From: a virus
Taxonomy: Duplodnaviria; Caudoviricetes
Length of the DNA: 64,000 nucleotides
Direction: 5' to 3' (one strand)
IMG/VR virus record: IMGVR_UViG_3300028048_000123
Location: 12,465 to 76,464 of that record
Shown here: positions 1 to 49,565 of the stretch, piece after piece
Numbering within the stretch: the first letter of the stretch is position 1
Layout of the letters: every line of letters starts with the position of its first letter
The notes under the pieces: generated by a model
What the model was told of the DNA's origin: nothing
The model's input: the letters and a program-made list of their open reading frames with translations, nothing else
Database searches by the model: none
Position numbers and translations under genes: made by a program

Positions 1-901
1 TTCATTCGCCTGTCATATCATCTTTTCTTAGCTCAAAGCTTGGTGATTCAACTCAGCGTAATTTTTGGCAGTGTCTAAATATTGGTTCGCCTCTTTCCAA
101 GAAGTTAAGCTGCTCATCACGGCTAAATACAATATGCTCTAAGTTTTCACAACGATAGAAAGCAAAATTGCCTATATGTTCAACACTAGCTGGTATAACT
201 ATTTCAGAAAGATTTTTACAGCGTCTAAATGCATCATGCTCAATAGTTTTTAGTTTGGATGTTTCAGGCATGCCAAGCATTACCAAGTCAGCAGAAGCAC
301 AGCCACAGAAAGCACTTTTAGCAATGTATGTAACTGAATCTGGTATTATAATACGTTGTAATTTAGCACAGCCTGAAAAAGCATATTCTTCAATTCTATC
401 TAAATTTTCTAATGCTTCTGTATTAACTCTTTCCAGTGCTGAGCAATCAAAGAAGGCTTCTTTACCAATAACTTTGCAGGTATGTGGCAAAATAACACTT
501 TTTAATCCATGGCTTAACTCAAATGTTTTAGGTGGTAAATAATCTAACTTAGCAAGTATAAAAGCTTTTTCTAAGCTATCACATTCACTAAACACACCTA
601 AGCCCAATTCTTTGACTGAAGCAGGTATAACAGCAGATCCAGATAGCCATTTGCAGTTCACAAAAGCAGCTTCTTCTATAACTTCAACCTTATCTGGTAT
701 ATTACAACTGCGAATTGCTGAGCCTTGAAAAGCAAATTTTTCAATTTTAGTTAAGTCTAGTGGCAAATGCACTTCATCAGCTTGATGATTTCTAAAAGCT
801 CTATCACCGATAATTTTTATATTATCTGGCACAACAACAGTTTTTTCACCAATATCATTACACTTTAGTAGCTCATCTTTTTCTATTATAAATTCTTCCA
901 T
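1..901 (-). CDS. BspA-type leucine-rich-repeat (LRR_5) protein, runs off left edge
   Basis: Repeats such as IPDSVTYIAKSAFCGC and IPASVEHIGNFAFYRCENL. The apparent stop at 53-55 is TGA; read as W the frame continues (KLRWVESPSFELRKDDMTGEW), resembling the C-terminus of the neighbouring paralog (KLQVLDFPSFTFKCKDDGINW). Confidence 0.85.
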
Positions 902-1824
902 TATTTTTTAACCTCATAATCCCAGTTTATACCATCGTCTTTACACTTAAATGTAAAAGATGGGAAGTCTAATACTTGAAGCTTCTTACATTCAAAGAAT
1001 ACATCACGTGCTTGCCTTATAAATTTAACTTGGTCATCACTTAAAAAGTTAACTCTTTTAAGCTCTTCACAGCCTCTAAAAACACCTTCACCAAGGTATT
1101 TAACACTTGCTGGCATAGTAAAGTCATATATAGCTGTATGTGCAAAAGCATAGTCTTCAATAGTTTCTAATTTAGAATCGGCTGCAGTAGATACAAAATT
1201 GATAGAGCTTAGCTTTGGACAGTTTGCAAAAGCAAAGCCCCCTATTCACTTAAGCTTATTGTTAAAGAAAATTCTTTGTAATCCACTATTTTTAAATGCA
1301 AATGCATGCATTGTCTCTAAGTTGTCAGGTAAATTAATAGCTGAAAGCTCAGGACAATACGTAAAAGCTTCCTGACCAATAGCTGTTATATTATTACTTA
1401 GTCTTACATCCTTTAGCATTGCACAGCTTTTAAAAGTGCGATCTGGTAAAGTTTCTAATTCAGGACAATTTACAACAGCTGTTTCTAGTTTGTTACAGTC
1501 ACAGAACACTGCAGTACCCATTTGCACTAAAGATTTAGGTAATGTAATTGTGTCGTGCAATTCATTACAGCCTACGAAAGCTCTATTACCAATCTCTTTT
1601 AAGCTTTCTGTAAATGTAACAGACTTTATGTCTGAACGATAAAAAGCATTATCTTTAATAGCTACAATACCTGATAGCAATACACTATTAATTTTATTAG
1701 CATATCTAAAAGCATTTTGACCAATAGTAGTTAGTCCAGATGGTATTGTTATATTGTTTTCTGTATCATCTTCAGGTATATATAACTGCACTGTATTTTC
1801 AGATACTTTTAAATCATAGCTCAT
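901..1824 (-). CDS. BspA-type LRR_5 protein (ORFs 1246..1824 and 901..1116 joined through TGA 1246-1248)
   Basis: LRR_5 repeats continue in frame across the TGA (NKLK-W-IGGFAFANCPKL); true stop TAA at 901-903. Confidence 0.85.
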
Positions 1825-1850
1825 TTATTAGCTCTCCTTTTAAGCGATCG

Positions 1851-1861
1851 TATAATTTAGC
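1851..1861 (-). promoter_or_regulatory. GCTAAATTA element (putative phage late promoter)
   Basis: GCTAAATTATA on the coding strand upstream of the LRR gene; motif recurs at least 12 times before gene starts. Confidence 0.55.
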
Positions 1862-1889
1862 TTATAATAAAGCAGTCATAAACAAAATC

Positions 1890-1910: not shown

Positions 1911-1927
1911 TTCAAGCAGAAATAAAA

Positions 1928-1986: not shown

Positions 1987-2397
1987 TTAAGCTTTATTTC
2001 GCTTCTCTGGATAATGCGTGCATTTACTTTGATAGCCATAGCAATAACACTCATCTCTTTCTCTTGTGCCATTACATCTTTTATAAACAGGATCATAACA
2101 CTTGCATTTATCTTCCATATCTAACGGTAATTTTTCAGCTGCATCAATTCCAGGCGCTAATGCTAGTGCTAAGGGTAATCTTTCAATTGTTTCAGTTCTA
2201 GACTCTAATGTTGTTAATTGCTTTTTTATTTCTTTATGACAGTAAGGACAATACCAAGTTGCTTTGCCATTAATAGTTTTTTCTAATGATGTTACATCTT
2301 CTTGCTCAAATTCATATTCACACCCACAATATTCGCAGGTGTCTTTATAAATAACATGTGTTTCAAGCATTTTGCCATTTTTAATTATTTTAAACAT
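1987..2397 (-). CDS. Hypothetical Zn-ribbon, Cys-rich protein
   Basis: CEYCG and CPYCH pairs plus a C-terminal Cys cluster. Confidence 0.6.
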   Translation of the reverse strand: MFKIIKNGKMLETHVIYKDTCEYCGCEYEFEQEDVTSLEKTINGKATWYCPYCHKEIKKQLTTLESRTETIERLPLALALAPGIDAAEKLPLDMEDKCKCYDPVYKRCNGTRERDECYCYGYQSKCTHYPEKRNKA

Positions 2398-2690
2398 TAT
2401 TCCTCCTTTAACCCATGCAATCTTTTATAGTTGGCTATTTCAGAATTTTTGCAACCATATCCGTTTTTGATTAATGCTTGACTAATACTTCTTTTGCCAG
2501 CTAATAAAGGTCGTAGAAAATTAGCTGAAATAGTTAATCTTAAATTCATTTGTTTATTGTAAATAGTTGCTTTATAATACTTATGACTTCTACAAGCCTT
2601 TCCATTATAGCTAGTCTCATAATTCTTAGCTAAAAAAACATCTTCTACTACAAATCCTTCAAACTCTTTTCCTAAATACTTACTTTTCAT
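2397..2690 (-). CDS. Hypothetical protein
   Basis: ORF with upstream AGGAGA and TAATG coupling to the next gene. Confidence 0.6.
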   Translation of the reverse strand: MKSKYLGKEFEGFVVEDVFLAKNYETSYNGKACRSHKYYKATIYNKQMNLRLTISANFLRPLLAGKRSISQALIKNGYGCKNSEIANYKRLHGLKEE

Positions 2691-2708
2691 TTTATTATCA
2701 ATTTCTCC

Positions 2709-2924
2709 TTATATTTCTTTTGCTATACCTTTTCTTACCCAATAAGTTTTTAATTTATTGAAGTGTTTATCTATTTCTATAATTGTGCAATCTCCAGTAG
2801 GCGAATACCAATCTGTATACCTAATAGGGTCTCTCCTTATTTCATTTAGACATTCTTCTAATGTATTGCCATAATATTTATATGCCGACACACAATCATT
2901 TACCATTACTTCTATTACATACAT
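2709..2924 (-). CDS. Hypothetical protein
   Basis: ORF tiling in an operon, TAA stop. Confidence 0.55.
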   Translation of the reverse strand: MYVIEVMVNDCVSAYKYYGNTLEECLNEIRRDPIRYTDWYSPTGDCTIIEIDKHFNKLKTYWVRKGIAKEI

Positions 2925-2942
2925 ACTTTAATAAACCATCTC

Positions 2943-3221
2943 TTATATTTTTCTTATACCATTTTCATATATTTCTATATTTCCGTCATCACAAATAGTT
3001 ATTTTTTCATAACCTAATTCAGTTAATTCTTTAATAACCTTTTCTTTTGATAATTTCTCATCATTACACATTAAAATAGAGCTATCATATATTCTTCTTT
3101 CAACTTCGTAAAGGTCAACATAATCTATACTACTATCAAACTTGTAATACTTATCTTTTTCTTTTCTTACAATAGTCCAATCCCAAGCACTATCATATGA
3201 GCTTATAATTATCTCTTTCAT
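2943..3221 (-). CDS. Hypothetical protein
   Basis: ORF with AGGAG RBS. Confidence 0.6.
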   Translation of the reverse strand: MKEIIISSYDSAWDWTIVRKEKDKYYKFDSSIDYVDLYEVERRIYDSSILMCNDEKLSKEKVIKELTELGYEKITICDDGNIEIYENGIRKI

Positions 3222-3349
3222 TTTTAGTCTCCTGCAACTTTATTAGTAGCTATATTCTAATATATTATACGCTGCAACAATTAAAAAAAGAGCAGTATTT
3301 ATAAAATACCACTCTTTAACTTTAAAAAAACTTTAAAAAACAGATTAAA

Positions 3350-3460
3350 CTAATCTTCGTCTTCCCATCTTGCTTCTTCTTCAGCTTGTGCAGCTGCTTC
3401 ATCATCCAAGATGCACAATGCAGCTAAAATAGCTATTGCTGTACTGCTAATTCTTGACAT
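3350..3460 (-). CDS. 36-aa peptide (hydrophobic N-half, acidic tail), not in the ORF track
   Basis: MSRISSTAIAILAALCILDDEAAAQAEEEARWEDED; AGGAGA RBS; promoter at 3507-3520. Confidence 0.5.
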   Translation of the reverse strand: MSRISSTAIAILAALCILDDEAAAQAEEEARWEDED

Positions 3461-3506
3461 ATAATCTATCTCCTTGTAAAGTTTCTATTGAGCATTGCTG
3501 CCCTAT

Positions 3507-3520
3507 TATATTATACAATA
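3507..3520 (-). promoter_or_regulatory. Sigma70-type -10 promoter (TATTGTATAATATA)
   Basis: Recurrent TTGTATAAT motif in intergenic gaps. Confidence 0.6.
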
Positions 3521-3530
3521 TTTTCTAGAG

Positions 3531-4343
3531 CTATTTGCTTGATATAAATATAACTTGCTCTGTATTGCATCCAAAGTGAGACTTATTTTCAAGGGTCTCA
3601 ACTATATAATCTTTATATTTTTCTGTTTTATCTATAACAAATAAATATTTTTCACATTTATAATTTTTTAAACAGGTATCAATCCATTCATCAGCTGATA
3701 ATTCTTCAATATCTTGATGCCAATGTTCTTTATTACCATAAGGTGGACAGGTAAAAAGACAATCAAATGTGCCCATTTCATATAATGAATTTTTGAGTAG
3801 CACCTCACTATTTCCAATATTTAAAGCATTAATTAATTGGTTAGATTCTCGCACAGTAATAGAATTAATATCATAACCTATATATTTTTTATTTAAAGTA
3901 GCAGTTCCTAGTAGTCTTCCACTAAATCCGCAACATGGATCAAAAATAGTGTCATATTTTTGTAAATATTTATTAATTAAATACTTAGCTAATGCTGGTT
4001 TAAAAATAGATACTTTAGGAGCCCTTCCAGAAACATATAATCCAGTTCTAATAGCTAATGCTGATAACTCTTTGGTAGCCATATATTTTAATCTATTTTG
4101 AATTACATAAGACATTATATTCGGATCTTGCCAAGCCTCTATTGGACTTTTATAGCCATAACGATTACAATGCCAGATTGATTTGTGATAGTTTTCAATT
4201 ATGTTTAAGCCAGCTATGCTATTAACCTTCCTTGTATGTAGTAGCTTTTTATAATCTTTAATAAGCTCTTCATTTGAAAAAGATTTATATGGAAAGGGGC
4301 TACTCATAGCCAAATTTAAATAGTGCTCTATTTCATTAGTCAT
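3531..4343 (-). CDS. DNA methyltransferase (N6-A/N4-C type)
   Basis: SAM-binding motif FDPCCGFSG and catalytic FTCPPY. Confidence 0.75.
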   Translation of the reverse strand: MTNEIEHYLNLAMSSPFPYKSFSNEELIKDYKKLLHTRKVNSIAGLNIIENYHKSIWHCNRYGYKSPIEAWQDPNIMSYVIQNRLKYMATKELSALAIRTGLYVSGRAPKVSIFKPALAKYLINKYLQKYDTIFDPCCGFSGRLLGTATLNKKYIGYDINSITVRESNQLINALNIGNSEVLLKNSLYEMGTFDCLFTCPPYGNKEHWHQDIEELSADEWIDTCLKNYKCEKYLFVIDKTEKYKDYIVETLENKSHFGCNTEQVIFISSK

Positions 4344-5211
4344 ATAATTCAGCCTCATTATAATATGTAATATAATTTAAGTTATTATCAAGAGCGGCCT
4401 TAAATTTAGCAGGGTCTCTAACTATCCATGTTTCTATAGCATTTTGATAAAACTTACTATTTAATGCTTTTTGTTTCCAAATATCTAATTTTTTATTATC
4501 TTCTTCAGTGTCTTCAAAAGGCTTGCCACCATGTGTCCAATCTAAATTTAATTCTATAAATAGGTCCTTAGACGGTATATAAAAATCACATTCAAAAGGA
4601 TAACGTGGATCTTCCCTATAGTGTCGTTTCACATCATCTTTACCATACTGAGCTATTAATACCTCATAGTATCTATCTTCAGGCTTTGAACTGTTGAATG
4701 AATTATTAGCTTTCTTTGTAATATATTGTTTAGCTAATACTTTTTGTTTAAAGTCTTCAGGCCATGGTCCTAAACAAATACCTTTATTCCATGGGTCTCC
4801 ATAAGTTCTGCTTGCTAGTCTTTTTGCTTCAATAGCAGCTTTTTCTTCAGGAGTCTTATTTTGTTTTGTGTCTGAAATCTTTTGCTTTGTATCTTCAGAG
4901 TGATGCTTGCCTAGCCAGCCATTGCCAGTATGCTTACCTTTATTCCAAGGCTCAACACCAAGGCCCTTACCCTTTCTACCGTCACTTACATGCTGGCTAT
5001 AAATAGCTTTTTCTTCAGGCGATTTAGCTTGCTTTGTCTTTGAAATAGCTTTTTTACGCATATCATCTGATTTATGCAAATCAAATTGCTTTAAGTAACG
5101 GTTTATTGTAGCAGTGCTTACATTGAACTCTTTAGCAATTTCTGCTACTGTTTTATTTTCATTAATATATAATTTTTGTAATAAATATTTATCTGGTGTT
5201 ATTTTAATCAT
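4336..5211 (-). CDS. Free-standing endonuclease: HTH + NUMOD-like repeats + PD-(D/E)XK/Vsr-like domain
   Basis: PWNKG and HSEDTKQKIS repeats; RYPFECDFY..DLFIEL..WTHGG; paralog at 13658..14674. Confidence 0.7.
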   Translation of the reverse strand: MIKITPDKYLLQKLYINENKTVAEIAKEFNVSTATINRYLKQFDLHKSDDMRKKAISKTKQAKSPEEKAIYSQHVSDGRKGKGLGVEPWNKGKHTGNGWLGKHHSEDTKQKISDTKQNKTPEEKAAIEAKRLASRTYGDPWNKGICLGPWPEDFKQKVLAKQYITKKANNSFNSSKPEDRYYEVLIAQYGKDDVKRHYREDPRYPFECDFYIPSKDLFIELNLDWTHGGKPFEDTEEDNKKLDIWKQKALNSKFYQNAIETWIVRDPAKFKAALDNNLNYITYYNEAELYD

Positions 5212-5251
5212 GCTATTTTAACCTCTTTATATAATATACAATATTATTTTA

Positions 5252-5263
5252 TAAAATTTAGCA
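5252..5263 (-). promoter_or_regulatory. GCTAAATT element variant (putative late promoter)
   Basis: TGCTAAATTTTA upstream of the endonuclease gene. Confidence 0.45.
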
Positions 5264-5274
5264 TAAATAATAAA

Positions 5275-5299
5275 AAGGGACCTCAAATTGAGGTCCCTT
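5275..5299 (-). terminator. Intrinsic terminator after the major capsid gene
   Basis: AAGGGACCTCA/TGAGGTCCCTT perfect stem plus T tract. Confidence 0.85.
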
Positions 5300-5322
5300 A
5301 GTTTTTGGTTTTCAGTTGTTAA

Positions 5323-6627
5323 CTAAGCAACAATCTTACCTGCAACTAGTAGTAAGTCATTTAATAATGCCTTAGAGTACCATGTTGAGAAGCCTTGTGC
5401 TAAGCCGCCATCTGGTGTACCTAGCAATTGTGTTGGAACGATTGCCATGTATGGGGCATAAACACCAGCTGAACTCATCATATCGTTGCCGTTTAGACCG
5501 AAGAAGAATTCACCTGATTGTAGTAATGGAGAAACGTAGATGTTTAAACCATCAAGTTCGCCTACCTTGTAAGGACCATTCATCTTAACATTCTTTACAG
5601 CTGTGAATCCGTTAACGAATCTTAAAACTGGAAGAACATCAGCAGCGATTACCATGTAGTTTGGATGGAATTTCTTTGTTCTGTTGTAGATGATAGCCTT
5701 AGCTTTTTCGATGATTTCAAGGAAACCATTGTAGTGTTCAAACTTGCTAACGCCGATAGGTAATGTCTTTGACCAGATTAGCTCTTCATTAGCTTCACCA
5801 GCACCTTTGTATAGCATGTCTACGATTTCTGTATCGATTTCGTATGCTAATTCACCACAAGCTTGTTCAGCGATTTGCTTATCAAGTGTGAAACCATAGT
5901 CTGTCTTAGCTTGGAATGCTGTGATTTGGTCATATCTTACAGCGATACGTCTTGGTTCAGCAACCAAAGCAATTCTTTCCATCTTTGGTCCAATTGTTGG
6001 GATGTCTTGTGCAGGAACATGTTCCATTTGGAATTCTTCAGAGAAGTATGCAACCTTAGCACCAGCTTCAACACCAGCCTTTAATTCGTCAGCTGTGATG
6101 TATTCAACTGTACCATCTGTCTTGATAACCTTAGCATCCTTGCCACCTTCAAATCTGCCTGTAGCCATAGGAGTTAAAGCAACCTTACCGTCTGAACCAG
6201 CTGTCTCAATAATAACTTGAGATGTATAGTTCATTCTAGATTCTGTCATATCTCCTAAAGAGAATACGCTGTTGAAGTTGTCACCTTTCTTTACATCGCC
6301 CTTGTCTGTCTTAGCAACATACTTTAAGTAAGCGATAGATCCAGAATAAGATGTCATTGGGTGAACGATAACTAAGTCGTTAGCGATTAATGATGGAACA
6401 GCAATGTTTGTTAGGTTTAAACAGAATTTCTTCCAGTCGCCTAAGTCAGCTCTTTCTGTAGCCATTGTGTTCATAGATTCAGTAATCCATCTGTTTGTGT
6501 TATCTAACAATACAGCTGTAGCTAGCTTTGTGTTGTTAGAAATTTGCTTGCCGTCATAGTTGTTAGCGATATAAGCTTCAGCAACCTTAATTTGACGTCC
6601 ATAAGTTTCTAATAAATTTTGTCTCAT
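5323..6627 (-). CDS. Major capsid protein, T4 gp23-like
   Basis: 434 aa; LVIVHPMTSYSGSIAYL, EPRRIAVRYDQ, ELAYEIDTEIVDML, AGVYAPYM; follows the prohead protease. Confidence 0.9.
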   Translation of the reverse strand: MRQNLLETYGRQIKVAEAYIANNYDGKQISNNTKLATAVLLDNTNRWITESMNTMATERADLGDWKKFCLNLTNIAVPSLIANDLVIVHPMTSYSGSIAYLKYVAKTDKGDVKKGDNFNSVFSLGDMTESRMNYTSQVIIETAGSDGKVALTPMATGRFEGGKDAKVIKTDGTVEYITADELKAGVEAGAKVAYFSEEFQMEHVPAQDIPTIGPKMERIALVAEPRRIAVRYDQITAFQAKTDYGFTLDKQIAEQACGELAYEIDTEIVDMLYKGAGEANEELIWSKTLPIGVSKFEHYNGFLEIIEKAKAIIYNRTKKFHPNYMVIAADVLPVLRFVNGFTAVKNVKMNGPYKVGELDGLNIYVSPLLQSGEFFFGLNGNDMMSSAGVYAPYMAIVPTQLLGTPDGGLAQGFSTWYSKALLNDLLLVAGKIVA

Positions 6628-6668
6628 ATTGTCCTCTTTTATATTAAATAGGTTATTTTATTTTTTTC

Positions 6669-8546
6669 TTATTTTTTCAAACCAGCTGATTCTAATACCC
6701 AGTCTGCAATTTCATATTCATTTGAATTATTTACTGCTTGTCTAGGTGCTTTTGCTTCAGTAATTTTAATGCCGCCCATACCTAAAGGTAATCTTGAGAA
6801 TCCAACGCTTTCATTAAGCATTTTATCGCAAGTAGCATCAATTTCCTTGATTGAATACTTTTCAGAAAGTCTGCTCTTAATATCAGCTGCTCTAACTCCT
6901 AGCATTTCTGCTTTTGATTCAATATATTTATTTAATGTTTCATCAAGCTTAGCTTTATATTGTTTTGCAATATTAATTCCATCATTTGCTTTTTGCTTAG
7001 CTTTTGCTAATTGCTCTGATAGGCTAGCTTTTTCTTCATCAAATTCTTTTTGCATTAAATCAAGTTTTTCTGTTAATAGCTTAATCTTTCCATTATTTGC
7101 AGTATTTAAACTTTCATTTAAAGACTTAGAATTGTTGATTTGATTTGTTAACTCATTGATCTTTGCATCTTTTTGAGTTAATTGTTCTTGTAATTGTTTT
7201 GCTTCTTTTTCTATTGATTGTGATTTTGCAGCTACACTGCTAACCCTAGCGAAGGCCATTTTATACTTATTAAGTTCTTCTTCTAATGATTTAACCTTAG
7301 TATCACTAACTGTCTTTTCTTTATTCAAAGACTTAACTTGGTCTTCTAAAGTAGCTTTTTGTCGAATTGCTTCCTTTAAGCTATCAAATAGCTTGGCATC
7401 TTCTTCCCCATCATCAATGGCTGTTTCATCTGCTGGAGCTTCTTCTTGTTCAGCTTCTTCAGGTTCATCTATATCTGCGTTATCAATATTATCTTCGTTT
7501 GTTTCTGCCTCAGCTTCTGGTTCAACAAGTTCTGCTTCAACCTCTGGGAAAGTTTCTTCAACCTTGTTAACAACAATCTCATCGACTTTCTCTTTGATCT
7601 CATCAGCTTGCTCTTCAGTTGGTTCAGTAATCTCTTGAATAGCATCTGCTACCTCAGCAGCAGTCTCTTGAATTACTTCAGCACCTTCTTCGGCAGAAAT
7701 TTGTGTATCTTCAGCTGGAGCTTCTGTTTCCACAACTTCTTCTTCAGCTGTTGGCTCAACGATAGGTTCGATGCCTGCTTCAACTGCTGGAATTTCTTCC
7801 TCAGTTTCTTCATCATCTTCCCATTCTTCAGAAATTGGTGTAGTTTCAATGTCTGGGTCTTCAACAGGGACGTCTGATTCAATATCAGAAACGTCTTCTT
7901 TGATTACTTCATCGTCAAGCTTAATATCTAAGTTATCTAGTGTATCTTTCATAACTAATTTATCTTCTTCATTAGCTTCATTTAAAGATTCAGTAAGAGC
8001 TTTCTTCATAGCTATACCTCTATTATCTAATGATTCGCACATAGCAAGTCTAGCTCTCTTCATAGCTGGTGTTCCAACAATGTCCCAAGTTTCTAAGAAG
8101 AATGTATCTGGATCAACTGAATTGTCAGGCATAACATCACCAGAACCACGTGAACTAATACCAGGTGTAAATCCATAATCACAAAGAATCTTTAATAGCT
8201 TTCCATTAGGAGTGTCTAAAATGTCTACATAAGCATATAAGTCATCGTCAACAATTTTTGGCATTTCTGGAATACAAGCACAAACAAGCTTCATATCTGT
8301 TTCTTCTCTATCAGCTGGGTGTCCAAGCTCTAGGAATAAACTTTTATTTGCAACCTTTTCTTTGAAGATGTCATCAGCTAATGCTTTTTCCCATAGCTCT
8401 CTATTATAAAGTCTTCCATTTCTTGTAGATTCCTTACAAGTAGCAATAGGACCATATAATCTGCCAAGGATATGTCTCTTAGCTTTTTCTTCATCTGATA
8501 ATGGTTGCATTTGTAGTGCTTCCAAAATTTTGTTATTATTTGTCAT
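6669..8546 (-). CDS. Prohead protease (T4 gp21-like) fused to an acidic and coiled-coil scaffold
   Basis: TRNGRLYNRELW, LELGHP, GISSRGSG, WDIVGTPA motifs; long Glu-rich and coiled-coil C-terminal part. Confidence 0.9.
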   Translation of the reverse strand: MTNNNKILEALQMQPLSDEEKAKRHILGRLYGPIATCKESTRNGRLYNRELWEKALADDIFKEKVANKSLFLELGHPADREETDMKLVCACIPEMPKIVDDDLYAYVDILDTPNGKLLKILCDYGFTPGISSRGSGDVMPDNSVDPDTFFLETWDIVGTPAMKRARLAMCESLDNRGIAMKKALTESLNEANEEDKLVMKDTLDNLDIKLDDEVIKEDVSDIESDVPVEDPDIETTPISEEWEDDEETEEEIPAVEAGIEPIVEPTAEEEVVETEAPAEDTQISAEEGAEVIQETAAEVADAIQEITEPTEEQADEIKEKVDEIVVNKVEETFPEVEAELVEPEAEAETNEDNIDNADIDEPEEAEQEEAPADETAIDDGEEDAKLFDSLKEAIRQKATLEDQVKSLNKEKTVSDTKVKSLEEELNKYKMAFARVSSVAAKSQSIEKEAKQLQEQLTQKDAKINELTNQINNSKSLNESLNTANNGKIKLLTEKLDLMQKEFDEEKASLSEQLAKAKQKANDGINIAKQYKAKLDETLNKYIESKAEMLGVRAADIKSRLSEKYSIKEIDATCDKMLNESVGFSRLPLGMGGIKITEAKAPRQAVNNSNEYEIADWVLESAGLKK

Positions 8547-8587
8547 CTTTCTGTTTCCTTATTTTTAAATAAAAAACTTTAAATCAA

Positions 8588-8598
8588 TTAATTTAGCA
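8588..8598 (-). promoter_or_regulatory. GCTAAATTA element (putative late promoter)
   Basis: TGCTAAATTAA upstream of the protease/scaffold gene. Confidence 0.6.
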
Positions 8599-8646
8599 TA
8601 AATTAGTAAGAATATTTCTAAAAATTGTAAAGTTTGTGTAAACTTA

Positions 8647-8913
8647 CTATTCTCCGATAACTACATCTTCACCAATGTATACTGTAATTTTTTGATCATC
8701 ATCAGCTGGAACACCTGTTTTGCTTGTATAGATAAAGCCATCTTTAAAGTATACTAGCTTGATGCCTTCTAAATCAGCTTCGCCTTCACCAGCCTTAAAT
8801 GTTAATGCTACGTCAGCATCAAAATCAGGAATATTATTCTTTGTTCCAAAAATTTCCTTTGCGTTTGTCTTTACGAATTCGTAAGCTAACTTATAACCAT
8901 TCTTAAAATACAT
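8647..8913 (-). CDS. Hypothetical protein (head module)
   Basis: ORF with GGAG RBS and an upstream late element. Confidence 0.65.
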   Translation of the reverse strand: MYFKNGYKLAYEFVKTNAKEIFGTKNNIPDFDADVALTFKAGEGEADLEGIKLVYFKDGFIYTSKTGVPADDDQKITVYIGEDVVIGE

Positions 8914-8976
8914 AGTTGTGTATCTCCTTAATATAAAAATTTATTTTTATTTTGTGCTGCCATGAAACAACATCAA

Positions 8977-8986
8977 TTAATTTAGC
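8977..8986 (-). promoter_or_regulatory. GCTAAATTA element
   Basis: GCTAAATTAA upstream of 8647..8913. Confidence 0.55.
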
Positions 8987-9008
8987 TAATAATATATTTC
9001 AATATAAA

Positions 9009-9038
9009 AAAATTAGGATGCTAATTGCACCCTAATTT
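9009..9038 (-). terminator. Intrinsic terminator
   Basis: AATTAGGATGC/GCACCCTAATT stem (one G-U pair on the minus strand) plus T tract. Confidence 0.65.
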
Positions 9039-9059
9039 ATTGCTTGCCACAGTTGGCTA

Positions 9060-9569
9060 TTAAGCGCTTAGCTCTCGTCTGTCATTTAGATACTCTAAAA
9101 CCATGATGTCAGACTTGATTACAGCTAGCAAAGACATACACTTTGTTAAGTCGCCTGTAGAGCTATATTCAGCTAAAGCATTAGCTATTTCATTGGCTCT
9201 TACTTGCTTTAAAAATAAGCTATCGTCTATCTTGCTATTGTACAAAAATATTTGTGTAAGCAGGCTTGCAAGTGTTGTAGCTACTTCATTGCCATTTATA
9301 GAACCATCAATATCTTGTAATGAAAAGTTCATAATATTTGTATATAAAGGTGAATTGTGTTTATTATGCTTTTGTCTTAAGCCTTCAAAGAAGTTAATAG
9401 CAGCAATACCTTTATTTGCAGCAATGAACTTTAGTACTTCTATTGCCTTTGGATCATTCATATCCTTAGCAGTTAAAAGCTTTGATAAATTTTTATTTAC
9501 TTCAATTTTAGAAACGCCTTCATCTTCAAGACGTACTAAAAGTCCTATACAGTCATCTTTTAATATCAT
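9060..9569 (-). CDS. Hypothetical protein downstream of portal
   Basis: 169-aa ORF with GAGG RBS. Confidence 0.65.
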   Translation of the reverse strand: MILKDDCIGLLVRLEDEGVSKIEVNKNLSKLLTAKDMNDPKAIEVLKFIAANKGIAAINFFEGLRQKHNKHNSPLYTNIMNFSLQDIDGSINGNEVATTLASLLTQIFLYNSKIDDSLFLKQVRANEIANALAEYSSTGDLTKCMSLLAVIKSDIMVLEYLNDRRELSA

Positions 9570-9588: not shown

Positions 9589-11541
9589 CTAGTTATTAGC
9601 TGTAAAATCTATTCCCTTAATATCCTCTGGTTTTGGAAGGTCCTCATCAGAGTTTTCTAATAGATCTAGTTTTTTCTCTAAGCCATCTAATTGTAAGCTT
9701 TCATTAGTTGGGATAGGTGGAAGTTCTATATCTTCTGCCCCTGCTTCGCTAGCTGGCTCATTAGGAGCTTCTGGAGCCTCGCCTCCAACTGCTGGCTCTT
9801 CACCTTCTGGTGTAGCATTCTTTTCTTCTTCTTTAGCAGTTTTGATAGCTTCAATTTCTTCATCAATGATAGCTTGCATTTCATCGCCATAATTTAATGT
9901 GCCTAATTGGTATTTCAATAGCTTTAATCTTCTTTCTCTGTCTTCAACATCTGTAAATAAGCTGTTCATACTACTAATTGCATTTAGTCTATCTGTTAAG
10001 TCTTTTCTATAGTCTAGCATTTCTTGTGTTATAGGTTGTTGCATCTTTAATACAAAGTTATTTAGATAGCTTACAAGACCATTATTAATAAGCATTAAAT
10101 TAATAGCTTCTGTAACAGCTTGTATAACAGCATTTTGAACCATCTTTACATTCTTACCAAATTGAGATGAAATAATTGTTAAAGCCGTACCACCATTGAA
10201 ACCACCACCTTCATCTGTAAATCCAAAATATTGTTTTGGCACACCAAATGCAGCGTAGAATTTATCATTCCACCATTCGATATCAGCAATACCCTTAACT
10301 TCTGTATCGCCACCAACAGCATTAATAGTAATTGCACCTTGTCCATTATGTGTTGTATAATAAACATTGTTTTCTGTTGGACCTGGGTTAATAAACTCAG
10401 ACATACCGCCGTCTGTTCTACCTTCACCAGTAACTAAAGCTGTTTTTTGCTCTATCATAGACTTAACATATCTTAAAGTAGCTTTTGCTTTTTCTTTAGA
10501 CATGTCACCTACATCGACAGCTACAAGTCTAATAATACTTGAACGTGTAACTCTATTTAAAATAGCTGCATTTTCTAATAATGTCTTTTCTCTTCAAGTT
10601 TTATATGAATCATATAGAATAGATTTACCACGTTTAACTGTATAATCCATACTATTTAAATCAGCATCATAATCAGTAGCATTTCTATAGATTTGAACTG
10701 TTTCTGGGAATCTTGTATAGTTGTCATCTAGATAAGCATGCACATAGTCATCAGCTTGGTGCACAATAACGTCATTACTTTTCATTCTGTAATTAGCTAC
10801 AGTAATGCCTGATGTTGCGCTTACTACTTCAGAATAATCATATCCTAAATCTTTTGTATTTGGAACCTCAATAAAGCCATATGTTTTACCATATTTAGTA
10901 AGCTCAAACATTGTGCTTGGATCTGGAACCATTTCTACATAATAGCTATACTTATCGTTGTTATTATGCATTGATAAGATAATGTTTTCATCTAAACCTT
11001 GTGCTCTCGCTGTTTCCTTATCAAGCTCTTCATTTAAGATGTCTCTTGCACCTTTTGTCTTTGGTTGGCCAAATAAATCATCTTCATAGTCTGATTCTCT
11101 AAAAAGCTTTAGATAAACGTCGCCATATTTTAATAAACAATAAGTCCAACCATAAACATATTTATCTACATTCATGATATTCAATAAGTAATTTACATAC
11201 TTACTAACTTTTGGATCTTTTGCTTCACACCATATAATATGACCGTTATCAGCTGCTTCACAAACTGACCCTGCAAATGTCTTTAACAACATAGCTACTG
11301 CAGAATCTCTTCCCATTGTATCAATTAGCTCATAAACTTGTTCTCTGCCATTAGATATAGTAGTAAACTTTTCAAGTGCTGCATAGTCGATGTTTGTTCC
11401 ACCTAAAACTTCGTCAACTAGTTGTTTAGATAAGTCAACATCTGCCTTTACCGTTTTATCCAATACAGTAGACTTAATTTGGCTTCCTGCTAATGGGTTT
11501 GGTGATTTGGCTCTTGGTTTTCTAACCTTTTCGTCTGCCAT
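9589..11541 (-). CDS. Portal protein, T4 gp20-like (joined through TGA 10594-10596)
   Basis: Continuous frame YKT-W-REKTLLENAAILNRVTRSSIIR; KFYAAFGVPKQYFG; located between terminase and protease. Confidence 0.85.
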
Positions 11542-11569: not shown

Positions 11570-13621
11570 TTATCCTAAAAATAATATTCCGTCCGAGATG
11601 TCTGCTAGATCCTGTGTTAAATCAGGGTCATCGTCATCATCAAACAGTCTATCAGTTTCATTTTTGTCTAACTCTTGATATATTTTAGCTAATTCATTTT
11701 GGAAATCAACTATTATCTGTTGCTTTCTTTGTGCTGCTGACTGCTCAGAGTTTACCTCAAGCATAGCGTCTAAATTAGTAGCTACATTTATGGTTGCAGT
11801 ACATAAATCAGCATGTTGTGATGCATTCCATAAAGAACCGACTACAGCATCGATTTGGTCTTTTGAACCAGATTTACCAGCGTCAGGGTGCTCAATATGT
11901 CCATCAGATAGCTTTTCAAGTCCTAAAACTTCTTCTGTCAAGAAATCACACTTTCTATAAACATCCATACGTCTGTCTGTCATAGTAGTTTTGAAATAAG
12001 CATATTGGTTTTGTTGTCTTGTTTTAGCATCAACACGGTCCACAGATACAGTCTTTACTTCAAAGCCGTCTGTTTTTAGCTCTTGTTGCATCATTGGTCC
12101 GCCTCAAGTATCGCAAGATATACCCTTAATATTAAAGCCTTGGTCTCTTAGCCACCTAATGAAGTTTCTGTGCTTTGCAAAGCTAATTGAGAAGCCCTTA
12201 GGAGCTTTAATAGACACTGAGAAAGCTACTCTATAGAAAAGTTCTCTTGAGATGTCTTCACCTTCAATACTTTCAGATTTACCTTTTAACCAAGTACCTG
12301 CAATACCTGTTTTGTCTCCTTTACCCAAGCTTCCAGACGACATGTCGAGATGAATAAATAAAGGTTTTGCTTTCCATTCATCAGGCACTTTACTTAGGTC
12401 AAAGAAATTCGCATATTGTGCAAAGTCATCAGGACTATTTCCAACCTCAATAATTTCTTTTGTGAAAGGGTTTTCATAGTCAGCTTTAATAGCATTCCAA
12501 GAAATACCTGAAATATACTTAGTAGCAGAAGCAGTTGAAATACCTGCAATATCTGTTAAAGCTAATTCAATGTTCGTTTTGAAAGCTTCTAAATAAGCTT
12601 CTGTTCTTGGAACTGAAATAATCCTGTTATATCCCTTTTCTCTGTATGTTGCCTCATCAGCATTATCTGGGATAAGTTCATTTGGTAAGTATCTATCACC
12701 TACAGCTACTTTAAACCAAGTGCCTGTTTGTTTTCTGCTATCAACTACCCATTGTGGTTCGTCAATGATTAGTGTTGTCTTTGATTCATTTTTCTTCTTA
12801 GTTTCAATATAGTCATCTAAGAAAGATTGGTCTGATGCTTTAGAAGAAGCTATAATATTTAGTGTTGGTAAGAAGTTTCCTCTTAAGAATCTTGAAGCCA
12901 TACGGGCATCAACTTGAGAAATGATTTTTTTTAGCTTTGCCTTTTGTCTTTCAACGTCAGCACTTCTAGCATCAAAGTTAACTTCGTCTGAGAAATTACA
13001 GAATAGCGCACGACCTACAATTTGATTGTTGCTTGAAGCACATACAAACTCAATATGCTTTTCTGGAACAAACATCATATTGCTGGTTCCATGCATTTCA
13101 CCATGAGACATAAATCAATCACTTGAAAGTATTAATTGATTTAGCTTATCAAGAGCAACACCTCTAGCGTTATCAATAGTGATGTTCATTAAAGATATTG
13201 TGATTTTATCGATAGGCTGCATTCCATAATATAAATATGGATCTTTTAAGCAAAGTAATCTATAAAGCATATACAACTGACAAATAACGGCCATAGTAGA
13301 TTTACCAATACCAATAGACCCTGTAAGTATTAGAGTATTATAAGCAGTTGTTGTATTTGTCGGAAATATTTTTTCAAGTGTTTTTTCTCAGTAAGGGTAC
13401 AGTGTAAATCTGCCTTCTGGATCATATAAGCCATTTCCAAGATAATGTCTGTCATGTAAAAAAGTGTGCACGTCAACTGGAACTTCCTCTCAGTCGGCAT
13501 ACTTCATTTCTTCTAAAGTCTCAGATGAACCAGCTTTAGCATATTCGCCTAAAATCTTTAATACTTCAGCTCTTTCTTCTGGACTTAAATTGTCTAAAAT
13601 TTCTTGACTAATCCTTTCCAT
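11570..13621 (-). CDS. terL: Terminase large subunit, 683 aa with 4 in-frame TGA
   Basis: Walker A LILTGSIGIGKST in a region the ORF track misses; ALFCNFSDEVNF; RNase H-like LFIHLDMS; C-terminal KDQIDA. TGA at 13490, 13388 (YPY-W), 13115 (SSD-W-F) and 12104 (CDT-W-GG). Confidence 0.92.
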
Positions 13622-17543: not shown

Positions 17544-17545
17544 TA

Positions 17546-22509: not shown

Positions 22510-22510
22510 A

Positions 22511-25061: not shown

Positions 25062-25075
25062 AATCTATTTACCTC

Positions 25076-35807: not shown

Positions 35808-36279
35808 CTATAGTATCTCCTAATTCCATCCAACTTTGCATATTTGTGCTAACTAAAGCCCAAAATGTATTCCAATGTTGCTCTGACTCAACTAAATAGT
35901 CTGTCATAGCACCGATAAAAGACCTTCCATTTTTTGGTTGAACATCTGCTTTGGCTTTATCTATGTCAAAATACTTATTTATGCAGTCAGTATAATCTGT
36001 AATTTCTGAAACAGCCGAAGTAAGTGAAGCTATTTTAATGCTATTCTTAGTATTCTTTTCTTCACTTGTTAAAATGTAATAATCTCGCATAAATTTTAAA
36101 TACGTAATAAAATAATCCATTGGATTCATAAATTCTTTATATGCTTCCTTATGTGCTTTCTTTAATTGCTTGTCATAAAGCTTATATAATTTATGATATT
36201 TTTTTTCAAAAGTCTTAGCTCTACTCATTATTCGCTCCTGTCTTGTTTTAACCACCAAGTTGTCTTGTAGCCAATCCAT
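35791..36279 (-). CDS. Hypothetical protein
   Basis: 162-aa ORF overlapping its neighbours. Confidence 0.6.
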   Translation of the reverse strand: MDWLQDNLVVKTRQERIMSRAKTFEKKYHKLYKLYDKQLKKAHKEAYKEFMNPMDYFITYLKFMRDYYILTSEEKNTKNSIKIASLTSAVSEITDYTDCINKYFDIDKAKADVQPKNGRSFIGAMTDYLVESEQHWNTFWALVSTNMQSWMELGDTIDGTDI

Positions 36280-36560
36280 AAGAAATCATGATGTTCACAT
36301 CTATTGTCAACATTTTCTGTTCTAATAAAATCTTTTTCAATCCATATTATTCTCCACCAATTGCTATTTTTGTCAAAAATATAGGAATTATTATGTAATT
36401 GACATCTAACTTCAAGCGGACAACTTACTTGTTCTTCTAAATCTTCTAATTTGCCTAATTTATTAACTAATTGCTCCTCAGATAGGTAACAATATCCTTG
36501 TTCATCTTGCTTATATTCATAGCGTCCCAAATCTTTTCTAAACTCTGTTAATCTTTCCAT
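36228..36560 (-). CDS. Hypothetical protein, paralog of 36560..36895
   Basis: Shared LEDLEEQVSCPLEV / LKLEYEFGCPVEV and terminal W(W/F)LK.DRSE. Confidence 0.6.
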   Translation of the reverse strand: MERLTEFRKDLGRYEYKQDEQGYCYLSEEQLVNKLGKLEDLEEQVSCPLEVRCQLHNNSYIFDKNSNWWRIIWIEKDFIRTENVDNRCEHHDFLWIGYKTTWWLKQDRSE

Positions 36561-44874: not shown

Positions 44875-45951
44875 CTAATTGTTGTTTTTTGTTTCTAAAT
44901 AATTAAGAGTTTTACCTTCTATTACTCTTCTATGCTTTAATATTTCAAAAATTATTCCACGTGATAGGTCAAGTCTTACATCCATACTGGCTTCTTTTAT
45001 AGTGCTATAAATAATATTTTGCTCTATTCAAACTACTTTTTTTCCGCTATTTATACCACGTTTTTTTGCTGCCATGCTCATTTTCTTTTTACTTTCCTCA
45101 GAAAAGTGCTTTCCAGTGTTTCATGGCTGATGCCCAGTTTTTCATTGGCCAGAATTATCGATAGAACATTTTTTTACTATTTCTGAACTTTCTTTTGTAA
45201 GGCCTTTATTTCAAGGGGTTCTTCCAAGATGAGCAAGTCTATTTTTTTCACGTGAAGCAGCTGATGGGTAATGTTTAGCTATACAATTTTTTGGCAATCT
45301 ACCCAGCTTTCAACCCTGCTCTATATAGCTAGCTAATTCATTAGGCATAACCATTTTTTCAAGCATTCCATTATTAATTGTTTTTCTGCCTTTTATTTTA
45401 TCCTTATTTGCTAACAGTAATTTTAATTTCTGCTCATCTGTCATAGGCAATTTCCCTATTTTTCAGTCTGGATTTTTAGCTAAAAAATCTTGCAAATTTT
45501 TACCACTGACATATCGCTGACTTACTGCATTATTAACTCACTTTCCATCTCTAAGACGTATAGAGTCATTCTGTTTATCTAATATATATAAGTCATTTAA
45601 GTTGCTTACTATTGATAATACTTCTGTTTCTGTTAAACTATTATCTGCAATTAATCTATTGCTTAGATAAGTAAGTGCTCGAAGCATACAATTATTAAAT
45701 CACCCCTTGCTGCATTTATATAAATAATAGTGAGCTAAAACATGGTCTTTATAAGTTAAGCACACTAGATTAGACTTAGAACTATCTACCTTAATATTAT
45801 TGTGCTTAAAATATGCCCTTGGTATAATATGATGTTTTTGAGTTTCAAATTTGGTATATTGCTTATTATAAGTGCTAACTAAATAAATATACTTATCTAA
45901 GTATTCATTATCAATAAAAATAGCTAAATCAAGTAATTTTTGTTTTTCCAT
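44875..45951 (-). CDS. HNH-type free-standing endonuclease with NUMOD repeats, 358 aa, 8 in-frame TGA
   Basis: HHIIPR...NLVCL...HVLAH; P-W-NKG, P-W-NTG, HFSEESKRKMS; TGA at 45700, 45538, 45463, 45310, 45211, 45142, 45121, 45028. Confidence 0.8.
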
Positions 45952-47572: not shown

Positions 47573-47582
47573 TTATATCTCC

Positions 47583-48101
47583 TTAATTAAATGTATTTAC
47601 TGTTGGTGGTATTTCTGCATTTGAGCCAAGGTTCATGAATTTTGACTCTTGCATGCGAGACATTAAAATAGACTTTAATGAATCTACCATTCTATATAAG
47701 CTATCAAGCTTTGTCTTTAATAGGCTTGCTATTAAATTATATAAGGCACTTGTTGCTATTTCTGGCGCATTAGCTACTAAAGCTAGCTTATCCTTCACTG
47801 CTGCTGCACCGTCAAAGCTATTGAAGCTGATAGCAAATTGTTCTTTTTGTAAAGCTTCAGCAATTTCAGCCTTCATTGCTGATTTTTCTTTTACTTCCGC
47901 TAATTGATAAGCTGCTAATTGTAAAGCTAAAATATTATCTCTAATCTGTTCAATAGTCAAAGTATAAGCATTAGCATTAATATTCTCAATAAGCTCATTT
48001 GCATGCTTTACTATTGGGCCAATAATATCATTAGCTATTTCTACAAGCTCACCATAAGTTGTTTCAACTTTTTCTAAAGCATTTTGTAATTTGTCATTCA
48101 T
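47583..48101 (-). CDS. Helical protein, possibly a recombination mediator (UvsY-like position)
   Basis: All-helical ORF next to recA; the call is positional only. Confidence 0.35.
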   Translation of the reverse strand: MNDKLQNALEKVETTYGELVEIANDIIGPIVKHANELIENINANAYTLTIEQIRDNILALQLAAYQLAEVKEKSAMKAEIAEALQKEQFAISFNSFDGAAAVKDKLALVANAPEIATSALYNLIASLLKTKLDSLYRMVDSLKSILMSRMQESKFMNLGSNAEIPPTVNTFN

Positions 48102-48580
48102 TATTTATCCTCCATAATACTTGGAATAACTGTATAATCTGAATCCATAAATGTTCTTTTCTTGACTGATGGGATTGCTACTATATTATACGATGTGTCT
48201 TGAAGCATTTTAATATTGATTGATTTAAAGTCTAAGTCCTTTAATCTTTTAATTTCCTCTATTCTAACTGCTATAACTTTATCATGCGAAGAAAACCAAA
48301 TAATAACATAAGGATTCACACCTTCTAAGCCGCTATAACTTAACATATCTTCATATTGTGTTAGTTTTGCAAAATTAAAAGTATTTTCCTTAGTTTCTTT
48401 GCACTCAAGCATCCACAATTGCTTATTTACATATGCTAAATAATCACAAGGATTTTGTGATGTAACCTTATAGCCTGACATTTGATCCTTCAGTCTAAAT
48501 AAAAATGTATTTGGAAAACAGCTTCGCCAATTCTTGGCAAATCTATCTTCAAATTGTTTACCTAAAGTTGTTTTACTCAT
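48101..48580 (-). CDS. recU: RecU-like Holliday junction resolvase
   Basis: GKQFE, NPCDY, LECKET. Confidence 0.75.
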   Translation of the reverse strand: MSKTTLGKQFEDRFAKNWRSCFPNTFLFRLKDQMSGYKVTSQNPCDYLAYVNKQLWMLECKETKENTFNFAKLTQYEDMLSYSGLEGVNPYVIIWFSSHDKVIAVRIEEIKRLKDLDFKSINIKMLQDTSYNIVAIPSVKKRTFMDSDYTVIPSIMEDK

Positions 48581-49565
48581 TTATTTGTATCTTTCCTTTT
48601 GTTATTTTGTGTTTAATAAGCAATTTCTTAATAAAAGCCTCGCTACAATTATATTTTTTTGCAATATCAGCTCTTGACCAATTTTGTCTTACATAAAGCT
48701 CATATAAATAATCTGCTGTGAGTTCATTTTTAATATTATCAAAATACTGCTTCTTTGTTATATTATGATTAGCTAAAAATATTACCATTTTATCAACAGG
48801 TATATTAAAATGGGCCGCTGTTTCGTATTTATTATGATTTTGGTTTACAAAAAAATCGTATACGTCTTTTTCATTTATTTTTAAATAAAGCTGTTCATGC
48901 TTACATATGCCATATTTTTTATTTAATACAATTAATTTTGCAGTACAACATCCAAAATGGCTAGCTGTTTCTGTTAGTGTATGATTTTCATTTTTATAAT
49001 ATTGTATAAGCTCTGCTTTACTTGGTGTATAGTAATTTGGAATTACTATATTATATTTTTTAAGCTTTGCTCTAAAGTATGATTTACTACAGCCAAAAAA
49101 ATCACAGGCTTCTTTTTTTGTATGCCCTTCAACTATGAGATAATTATATAATCTATCATAAGTTAAGCCAAGTTCTAGCTTTTCATATAAAGCTTGCAAA
49201 TCTTTATAATCAGCTTCACTGAGCTGCTTTTTCTTTAAGTCATCTCGCCCAATTCAATGAAGCATGGATCTAACTGCTTTTAGATTAGCTGCAGCCATAG
49301 TATCAATTGTATGTAAAGCTAAGAAATAATGTGCTTTAATATGGTCAGCATAATGAAGTCTAACTAAATTTGTGCTGTTATTATCTATAGCCATATTATT
49401 TTGCTTATAGTATGCCCTTGGAATAATGTGGTGCACTTGACAACCTAGTTCTGTATTAGGCTGTGCATTATCTACTAAAAATTGTAAATAGTTTTTGCAA
49501 TCAGCCTGCTCTTTAAAAATAGCTATATTGCTAAGCTCTGTCATTTTTATATGTATATTAAGCAT
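48573..49565 (-). CDS. HNH endonuclease with C-terminal HTH repeats (joined through TGA 49254)
   Basis: HHIIPRAYY...NLVRL..ADHIKAHY, paralogous to 44875..45951; frame continues MLH-W-IGRDD. Confidence 0.75.

Follow-up and report, generated by a model that had tools for sequence, protein, structure and literature searches.

The stretch of DNA analysed here (the window) comprises 64,000 nt of the virus record IMGVR_UViG_3300028048_000123 (76,464 bp in total; GC 32.7%), and all of its genes lie on the minus strand. The source is a jumbo-class tailed phage of gut or rumen type, and the record is 34% complete, i.e., roughly one third of a genome whose complete size is estimated at about 200–230 kb. 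This genome (G000) was compared with contigs of its relatives (G001–G005, plus L013), including a complete 230-kb relative (G004; terminase large subunit, terL, 55% identical to that of this phage) and a standard-code relative (G005; terL 56% identical). The features that bear on the use of TGA are as follows.

2–901, minus strand: LRR protein (phrog_35892, phrog_18805), TGA at aa 283 (53–55) and aa 300 (2–4)
901–1824, minus strand: BspA-type LRR protein (PF13306 LRR_5, 1e-60), TGA at aa 193 (1246–1248)
1987–9569, minus strand: TGA-free block in which every Trp codon is TGG, with a homing endonuclease (4336–5211), the major head protein (5323–6627), and the prohead protease/scaffold (6669–8546)
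9589–11541, minus strand: portal protein (phrog_213 over aa 68–577), TGA at aa 316 (10594–10596)
11570–13621, minus strand: terL, TGA at aa 44, 78, 169, and 506
13658–14674, minus strand: homing endonuclease (phrog_3339), seven of eight Trp codons TGA
14664–15479, minus strand: conserved protein with no function assigned, TGA at aa 130 and 238
15591–17543, minus strand: nucleotidyltransferase-like protein (phrog_36119; a weak PF18765 match, E 0.0037, fell below the cut-off)
17546–20356, minus strand: 936-aa protein, TGA at aa 455
20968–26167, minus strand: four genes with one or two TGAs each, i.e., 20968–22509, 22511–23701 (HNH-like), 23715–25061 (AAA+ ATPase), and 25076–26167
33035–33856, minus strand: candidate gp55-like late sigma factor, TGA at aa 44 and 218
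33927–63959, minus strand: DNA replication, recombination, and nucleotide-metabolism module (PHROG matches)
44875–45951, minus strand: HNH/NUMOD homing endonuclease inserted in the replication module (phrog_655), all eight Trp codons TGA
48573–49565, minus strand: HNH homing endonuclease (phrog_655 over aa 6–262, crossing the site), TGA at aa 104

The LRR gene at 2–901 extends 20 bases beyond the window start at its 3′ end, and glycosyltransferase genes just past that start also carry TGA.

Reading frames that continue across TGA

Code-4 ORFs of the window contained 43 in-frame TGAs, seven of which fell in N-terminal over-extensions (five in 15591–17651, two in 35791–36300), leaving 36 credible sites spread over 15 minus-strand genes and agreeing with the figure of about 35 that a preliminary description had reached by hand. 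The nucleotidyltransferase-like gene, for example, kept one genuine site, codon 489 of the over-extended ORF; the other five lay in a false 5′ extension upstream of it. That description had also proposed that these codons join code-11 fragments into complete genes, and full-length homology bore this out for portal, terL, LRR_5, and homing endonucleases; terL aligned by tblastn to terminases of cultured phages in one piece (aa 1–645, 94% coverage). Across the window, 21 TGAs lay inside the relatives' alignments with at least 15 flanking aa on both sides, and ORF continuity was the sole support at four sites (25076–26167, aa 37 and 121; 20968–22509, aa 12; 22511–23701, aa 16). In-frame TGA in conserved genes with homology on both sides is therefore confirmed, and a code 11 annotation of the record breaks terL, portal, and about a dozen further genes.

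Coding density, suggested earlier as a check, rose from 0.861 to 0.908 with TGA treated as sense; with TAG treated in this way it reached only 0.869. The gain was larger in the close relatives G001–G003 (from 0.69–0.75 to 0.91–0.92) and almost absent in the standard-code G005 (0.898 to 0.902 under code 4). Raw TGA counts in forced code-4 ORFs run too high, with many false "in-frame" TGAs in G005, and our conclusions therefore rest on homology-supported sites and the density gain.

Residues at TGA sites and the use of stop codons

Among the relatives' codons opposite this genome's TGAs (n = 177), TGA (59) and TGG (57) were followed by codons for Tyr (18), Phe (13), and His (8), with none for Gly; TGG made up 48% of the 118 non-TGA codons, and Trp, Tyr, Phe, and His together 81%. 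Conversely, relatives carried TGA opposite this genome's TGG 74 times, and TGA was never present at aligned sites in G005 and L013. The interchange recurred gene by gene, e.g., at portal aa 316 (TGA in six relatives, TGG in six), at aa 130 of 14664–15479 (TGA five times, TGG four, GTA and CGG once each), at aa 186 of 22511–23701 (TGA, TGA, TGG), at aa 455 of the 936-aa protein (TGG in G001, G002, G003, and G004), and at five of the seven TGA sites of the homing endonuclease at 13658–14674, where G001 had TGA or TGG. The four terL sites held TGG, TGA, TTT, TAT, TTC, or CAC; aa 284 of the AAA+ ATPase was His in G004, and aa 238 of 14664–15479 was Tyr in nine relatives, TGG in one, and GCC (Ala) in one.

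Homologs with residues other than Trp at TGA positions had been named in advance as evidence against this reading. Here, TGG, aromatic residues, and His dominated, and a minority of sites held non-aromatic residues, mostly in variable LRR and glycosyltransferase regions. At 2–901, alignments with G001 and G002 crossed both TGAs and showed I/R and H/Q there; at 901–1824, the best LRR_5 stretch (aa 125–256) included the TGA at aa 193, where relatives had V or T; and the site in the nucleotidyltransferase-like protein was variable (W, F, Y, A, E, P).

Evidence internal to the genome pointed the same way as the dominant class. The earlier comparison of paralogs held, since the TGAs at aa 262, 283, and 300 of 13658–14674 aligned to TGG-encoded Trp of 4336–5211 (motifs ..WTHGG and AI.TW), and so did the NUMOD comparison, P-TGA-N-K/T-G occurring twice in 44875–45951 and P-W(TGG)-N-K-G in 4336–5211 (twice) and 51927–52952. 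The phrog_655 match of 44875–45951 (aa 10–217) crossed four TGAs, and the gene had no counterpart in G001–G005. Together with invariant-Trp columns in a further gene (33035–33856, below), the TGA/TGG interchange, the aromatic and His substitutions, and the lack of Gly strongly support tryptophan as the residue specified by TGA in this phage.

As a stop, TGA was not used: every code-4 ORF of the record ended in TAA or TAG, the short TGA-ended alternatives were without homology support, and we found no gene ending in TGA, as the preliminary description had noted for the minus-strand gene ends that it inspected. In the standard-code G005, 37% of ORFs ended in TGA. The base 3′ of in-frame TGA was T in 15% of cases, resembling sense codons, as against 53% after TAA or TAG.

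Partition of TGA, its decoder, and the code of the host

The replication module (PHROG matches to SbcCD, RNR, exonuclease, clamp loader, UvsX, resolvase, sliding clamp, DNA polymerase, SSB, primase, DnaB, DnaC, and dUTPase) had TGA at 0 of its 78 Trp codons, compared with 42 of 115 elsewhere (Fisher p = 9e-12). TGA accounted for 25% of Trp codons overall, and the other A/G-ending codon pairs were 54–94% A-ending; given that bias, its absence from the replication genes reflects active avoidance. The 34 ORFs of the module ended in TAA (32) or TAG (2), and, with the two inserted homing endonucleases set aside, TGA was absent both as sense and as stop, which is why the module reads identically under codes 4 and 11. 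Structural and late genes are thus where the recoded stop concentrates, and replication genes lack it; for late genes this is a tendency and not a rule, the major head protein and prohead protease being TGA-free. Recoding had been described earlier as running across the window to position 49,565; this stands for late genes and some homing endonucleases but not for the ~30-kb replication block or the capsid genes, and the end coordinate merely marks the last homing endonuclease that carries TGA.

We consider it likely that this is a partitioned recoding in which TGA never terminates and is read as Trp, with a phage tRNA-Trp(UCA) as the most likely decoder in a standard-code host. Replication, recombination, and nucleotide-metabolism genes would be transcribed first along the single coding strand and, being TGA-free, could be translated by unmodified standard-code host machinery. 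Later genes (the sigma candidate, terminase, portal, LRR, glycosyltransferase, and some homing endonucleases) would be made at full length only under active opal suppression, most likely by a phage-encoded tRNA-Trp(UCA) charged by host TrpRS. The gene for this suppressor tRNA would be situated in the two thirds of the genome that the record lacks; the complete relative G004 carries such a gene.

Neither the window, in which the preliminary description had seen no tRNA-Trp(UCA) or release factor gene, nor the rest of the record, a part of the remaining genome that it had proposed to search, yielded a decoder: we found no tRNA, RF-1-domain, or TrpRS-type gene across the 76,464 bp (34% of the genome). 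RF-1 domain and TrpRS-type synthetase families were likewise absent from G000, G001, G002, G004, and G005, and a tRNA search of G001–G003 found none. G004 does carry a tRNA(UCA), with A1-U72, G73, a tRNA-Trp-like 7-bp acceptor stem, and a variable region that forms a second, CCA-bearing anticodon-like arm. Both halves had annotated phage tRNA-Trp genes as best matches, and blastn against E. coli genomes gave no match. No naturally occurring tRNA-Trp(UCA) with such a CCA arm turned up in literature searches, whose sole match was an engineered V-arm carrying a pseudo-anticodon (PMC7590224). When phage tRNAs(UCA) were screened in an E. coli-based system, 13 of the 13 analysed inserted Trp (PMC12636597). 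Extending the decoder from G004 to this phage, at a terL identity of only 55%, is an extrapolation. Separately, phages of 105–136 kb with the two-armed tRNA were considered as the missing part of this genome and rejected, since they hold no relative of this phage's terL and so belong to other lineages.

The alternative that survives best, which we nonetheless regard as distinctly improbable, is that the host itself is a code-4 bacterium, whether Mycoplasmatales-like or another that reads TGA as Trp, and that the phage mirrors its host without any phage-driven switch. It would account for TGA being nowhere a stop, for the 76 kb of record holding no decoder gene, and for an AT-rich genome (32.7% GC); yet under the A-ending bias it predicts Trp codons dominated by TGA everywhere, against the 25% overall and 0/78 in replication genes observed, and it sits poorly with a relative that brings its own tRNA-Trp(UCA) and with standard-code members of the same clade. 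Four relatives were found in bacterial genome contigs, one of them in a "Bacilli bacterium" MAG, as this alternative would have it, the others in MAGs of Bacteroidales, Lachnospiraceae (Waltera), and one further bacterium. These placements are mutually inconsistent and the contigs are probably mis-binned phage sequence, and we rejected host assignment by this route because the bins disagree taxonomically. Of the two precedents invoked earlier for the code, stop-recoded gut phages fit better and a Mycoplasma-type host code less well.

A different residue at TGA, be it glycine (code 25, the other established bacterial TGA reassignment, with a Gracilibacteria/Absconditabacteria host) or Cys, Sec, or Arg, is hardly credible. 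ARAGORN does call the G004 tRNA(UCA) a tRNA-SeC, owing to its long extra arm, but tRNA-Sec has an 8-bp acceptor stem, and the 7-bp stem, A1-U72, and tRNA-Trp-like halves all speak for Trp, as do the complete lack of Gly among the 118 non-TGA codons, the predominance of TGG and Trp/Tyr/Phe/His codons there, and the invariant Trp at W44 and W218 of 33035–33856 homologs. A reading of the TGAs as true stops, with the genes being pseudogenes or split, or the sites due to assembly errors or isolated read-through, can practically be dismissed: most code-11 fragments are indeed still ORFs of at least 80 aa, but such stops would break the essential single-copy terL and portal, contigs assembled from different samples show either TGA or TGG at the very same codons, homology is unbroken across the sites, and the sequence after TGA is sense-like.

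A candidate late sigma factor and comparison with known systems

Beyond the replication block, the first gene downstream to carry TGA (33035–33856) has it at two positions, W44 and W218, that are invariant Trp among 30 homologs; in G004, the codons at these two sites are TGG and TGA. Its modelled N-domain came closest in structure to the late-transcription complex of T4 (7d7d_F; Z 8.0, rmsd 3.3, 95 aligned) and next to a large number of sigma region-2 domains; Z is middling for a helical fold. These sigma-like matches came only from the wide VIA search; Foldseek against PDB gave no match at E <= 0.001, and the protein had no Pfam or PHROGs match. By its predicted fold, the product resembles late sigma factors of the T4 gp55 type, and we treat it as a candidate. 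Public protein sets are inconsistent on this gene: the full-length code-4 product is on record, and one homolog cluster (P0057) holds both 274-aa and 220-aa proteins, the shorter of which may have been called in truncated form.

A bolder reading, which we offer as a doubtful one, is that the late programme as a whole is timed by the code switch, the sigma candidate being gated by opal suppression through a two-armed, host-TrpRS-chargeable phage tRNA-Trp(UCA). If so, late transcription itself would wait for suppression, both invariant-Trp TGAs having to be read, and the CCA-bearing second anticodon-arm copy would keep a G004-type tRNA-Trp(UCA) chargeable by host TrpRS. With a sigma candidate dependent on TGA = Trp and standard-code relatives at hand, the more general model of timing by code switch is directly testable.

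Among known systems, Mycoplasmatales, Entomoplasmatales, and their phages (code 4) likewise read TGA as Trp and stop only at TAA or TAG. There, TGA is the predominant Trp codon genome-wide, whereas here its share of Trp codons is 25% and about 30 kb of early genes exclude it, and the decoder known from the relative G004 is phage-borne. Code 25 (Gracilibacteria/Absconditabacteria) shares TGA as sense and differs in its Gly, of which there were 0 at aligned sites here. TAG-to-Gln crAss-like and Lak phages (code 15; PMC9523058) follow the same logic of a reassigned stop in late genes with phage suppressor tRNAs; codon and amino acid differ, and the density gain with TAG as sense was negligible here.

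The closest likeness is to the TGA-to-Trp gut and rumen phages of Borges et al. (bioRxiv 10.1101/2021.08.26.457843), which are also large and from animal-gut-type metagenomes (clades such as Jade, about 200 kb, and Agate, about 127–154 kb) and are thought to infect standard-code hosts. In both, structural and late genes carry TGA at Trp positions while the replication machinery is TGA-free, and both include standard-code clade members and a suppressor tRNA(UCA) in some genomes only. Unlike in those phages, neither RF1 nor TrpRS was found here, even in the complete G004; TGA is also missing from the genes of the major head protein and prohead protease, and the gp55-like sigma candidate has it at invariant Trp. 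The likeness is one of pattern and does not imply placement in a named clade (Jade, Agate). Phage stop-codon recoding of this type is real and already published; to it, this phage adds a clean example of partitioned TGA in a jumbo-class lineage, with a sharp boundary and a module readable under both codes.

The record, its genes and its relatives

The window corresponds to bases 12465-76464 of a one-contig IMG/VR virus record of 76,464 bp, whose CheckV completeness is 34% and in which neither a terminal repeat nor a tRNA was found along the whole length. GC content is 32.7%, and the minus strand carries all plausible genes. PHROG, Pfam, and tblastn searches identified the following:

11570-13621, minus strand, terminase large subunit (terL)
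9589-11541, minus strand, portal
6669-8546, minus strand, prohead protease/scaffold
5323-6627, minus strand, major head protein
in the window, minus strand, BspA-type LRR proteins
in the window, minus strand, topoisomerase
33927-63959, minus strand, replication and recombination module
immediately beyond the window, glycosyltransferases

The replication module encodes SbcCD, an RNR-like protein, exonuclease, clamp loader, UvsX, resolvase, sliding clamp, DNA polymerase, SSB, primase, DnaB, DnaC, and dUTPase. Its DNA polymerase I-type gene (50817-55418, minus strand) is in pieces (53448-55418, 52995-53339, and 50817-51809), split by a GIY-YIG homing endonuclease gene (51927-52952). Separately, a peptide deformylase homolog (phrog_2890; 29476-30321, minus strand), an accessory gene related to translation in a phage whose decoding is itself altered, lies amid small TGA-free genes between the candidate sigma gene described below and the topoisomerase gene.

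A terL search recovered 16 related IMG/VR loci, and five larger related records (G001-G005) were read whole. Given their lengths and completeness, this phage is of the jumbo class, ~200-230 kb.

Larger IMG/VR relatives of the phage (record; terL identity; length; CheckV completeness)
G001; 96%; 82 kb; 41%
G002; 77%; 105 kb; 46%
G003; 77%; 100 kb; 46%
G004; 55%; 230 kb; 100%
G005; 56%; 130 kb; 83%

TGA as a tryptophan codon

TGA never serves as a stop: ORFs end in TAA or TAG throughout (32 and 2, respectively, of the 34 ends in the replication module), which generalizes to all ORFs what the preliminary description had seen at minus-strand gene ends. Alignments to relatives continue across near-C-terminal TGAs, and T is the next base after 15% of TGAs, in line with the sense-codon background, vs 53% after TAA or TAG. 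Code-4 ORFs of the window genes, in which TGA is read as Trp, contain 43 in-frame TGAs; seven fall in false 5′ extensions (15591-17651 and 35791-36300), leaving 36 in 15 genes, close to the ~35 previously counted by hand. The suggested comparison of codes 4 and 11 likewise bore out the recoding, as coding density rose from 0.861 to 0.908 with TGA as sense and only to 0.869 with TAG as sense, and the gain was far larger in G001-G003 (0.69-0.75 to 0.91-0.92). Assembly error is excluded as a source of these TGAs because identical codons are again TGA in contigs of other samples.

Two relatives with terL identities of 56-68%, G005 (L058-L064; 42% GC) and the locus L013, apparently use the standard code and would be useful outgroups to date the code change in the clade. 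In G005, 37% of ORFs end in TGA and the density gain is nil (0.898 to 0.902), while L013 is judged solely from TGA never occurring at aligned sites.

For amino acid assignment, all code-4 proteins of the record were aligned to relatives and the codon facing each TGA was read. Among 177 aligned cells, relatives had TGA in 59, TGG in 57, and codons for Tyr in 18, Phe in 13, His in 8, Gly in none, and other residues in 22; in the reverse direction, they showed TGA opposite TGG codons of the record 74 times. G005 and L013 never had TGA at aligned sites and often had TGG (e.g., terL aa 78 and aa 169, and portal aa 316). In the gene at 33035-33856, W44 and W218, both written TGA, are invariant Trp columns (30-sequence alignment; homolog set of 783 proteins). 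Two internal comparisons made earlier also held: in endonuclease 13658-14674, three TGAs fall opposite Trp codons written TGG in its paralog 4336-5211, and the P-TGA-N-K/T-G motif, present twice in 44875-45951, corresponds to PWNKG, written with TGG at three places elsewhere. As judged by sequence comparison, the relatives' codons at TGA sites and the invariant W44 and W218 settle the reading as Trp, and code 25 (TGA as Gly) is excluded by the complete lack of Gly in the aligned cells.

Just beyond the window, the gene L001:11732-12382 contains a tandem in-frame TGA-TGA (L001:11876-11881, minus strand; aa 168-169), where the G002 homolog has Asp-His and the alignment runs on beyond. Such a Trp-Trp pair spelled by two stop codons would test suppression stringently.

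Partitioned use of TGA

TGA had been described as reassigned to Trp across the window; this holds up as an observation, and the reading as Trp is supported, but the recoding is partitioned rather than uniform. TGA wrote 0 of 78 Trp codons in the replication module, its homing endonucleases left out, vs 42 of 115 in the rest of the record (Fisher p = 9e-12), while other A/G-ending codon pairs were A-ending at 54-94% in both alike. The module is therefore readable under code 4 or code 11 alike. The capsid block (1987-9569) is likewise without TGA.

The homing endonucleases (44875-45951, 13658-14674, 4336-5211, 28103-28897, and 51927-52952) are bimodal, with TGA at 8/8 and 7/8 Trp codons in two and at 0/7, 0/5, and 0/9 in three. 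The all-TGA member, 44875-45951, lies inside the replication module, which otherwise lacks TGA, and no relative has an equivalent gene; this endonuclease may have been acquired recently from a different recoded genome, or it may be kept from expression until late.

Downstream of the replication block, in-frame TGA first appears in the gene 33035-33856 (minus strand). Its predicted N-terminal domain best matched 7d7d_F, the gp55 chain of the T4 late-transcription complex (Z 8.0, middling for a helical fold; rmsd 3.3 over 95 residues), followed by many sigma region-2 domains. Because of that middling Z, and because Foldseek, Pfam, and PHROGs gave no match, a gp55-like late sigma is a supported lead, not a finding, and gating of this candidate by a code switch is possible. 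Its full-length code-4 product is already in a public protein collection (P0001). In the homolog cluster of protein P0057 (P0121-P0123 and P0126), 274-aa members are mixed with 220-aa ones, possibly code-11 truncations, in which case recoded phage genes would be inconsistently annotated.

Candidate decoder tRNA, host code and known recoded phages

No gene for a TGA decoder (tRNA, RF-1-domain, or TrpRS) was found on the record or on G001-G003, so the earlier report of no tRNA-Trp(UCA) or release factor gene in the window extends to all 76,464 bp. The complete relative G004, by contrast, carries a 96-nt tRNA with anticodon UCA (G004:C1:2900-2995, equivalent to L024:1498-1593, minus strand). ARAGORN labeled it tRNA-SeC due to its long extra arm, a label rejected on its 7-bp acceptor stem. 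The molecule also shows A1-U72 pairing and G73, its CCA end is encoded, and the best matches of its two halves are phage genes annotated as tRNA-Trp; by these features it is a predicted tRNA-Trp-like opal suppressor. The extra arm, with a 5-bp stem and the 7-nt loop N-U-C-C-A-A-A, is a second anticodon arm, a copy of the one in tRNA-Trp(CCA).

Scanning IMG/VR phage contigs for a UCA anticodon arm yielded 24 distinct two-armed tRNAs (L067-L178), whose extra-arm stems covary at five pairs with no pairing from pair 6, and whose loci gain coding density under code 4. None of five larger tRNA-bearing records tested (G006-G010) has a terL relative of this phage, and the design is thus spread across phage lineages. 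We found no published description of a natural two-armed tRNA-Trp(UCA); an engineered pseudo-anticodon V-arm recruits a synthetase (PMC7590224), and a preprint that used an E. coli-based screen reports Trp insertion by 13/13 analyzed phage tRNAs(UCA) (PMC12636597).

The main rival, a host natively using code 4, is disfavored because the early (replication) module lacks TGA, TGA makes up only 25% of Trp codons overall despite an A-biased genome, and the relative G004 bears its own tRNA(UCA). Partitioned recoding is a phenomenon of an already known kind. Borges et al. (bioRxiv 10.1101/2021.08.26.457843) described TGA-recoded phages in animal guts, cattle included, found suppressor tRNAs in only ~1/3 of genomes, and proposed that recoding times late gene expression in standard-code hosts. 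The pattern here is alike, and in both cases close relatives use the standard code.
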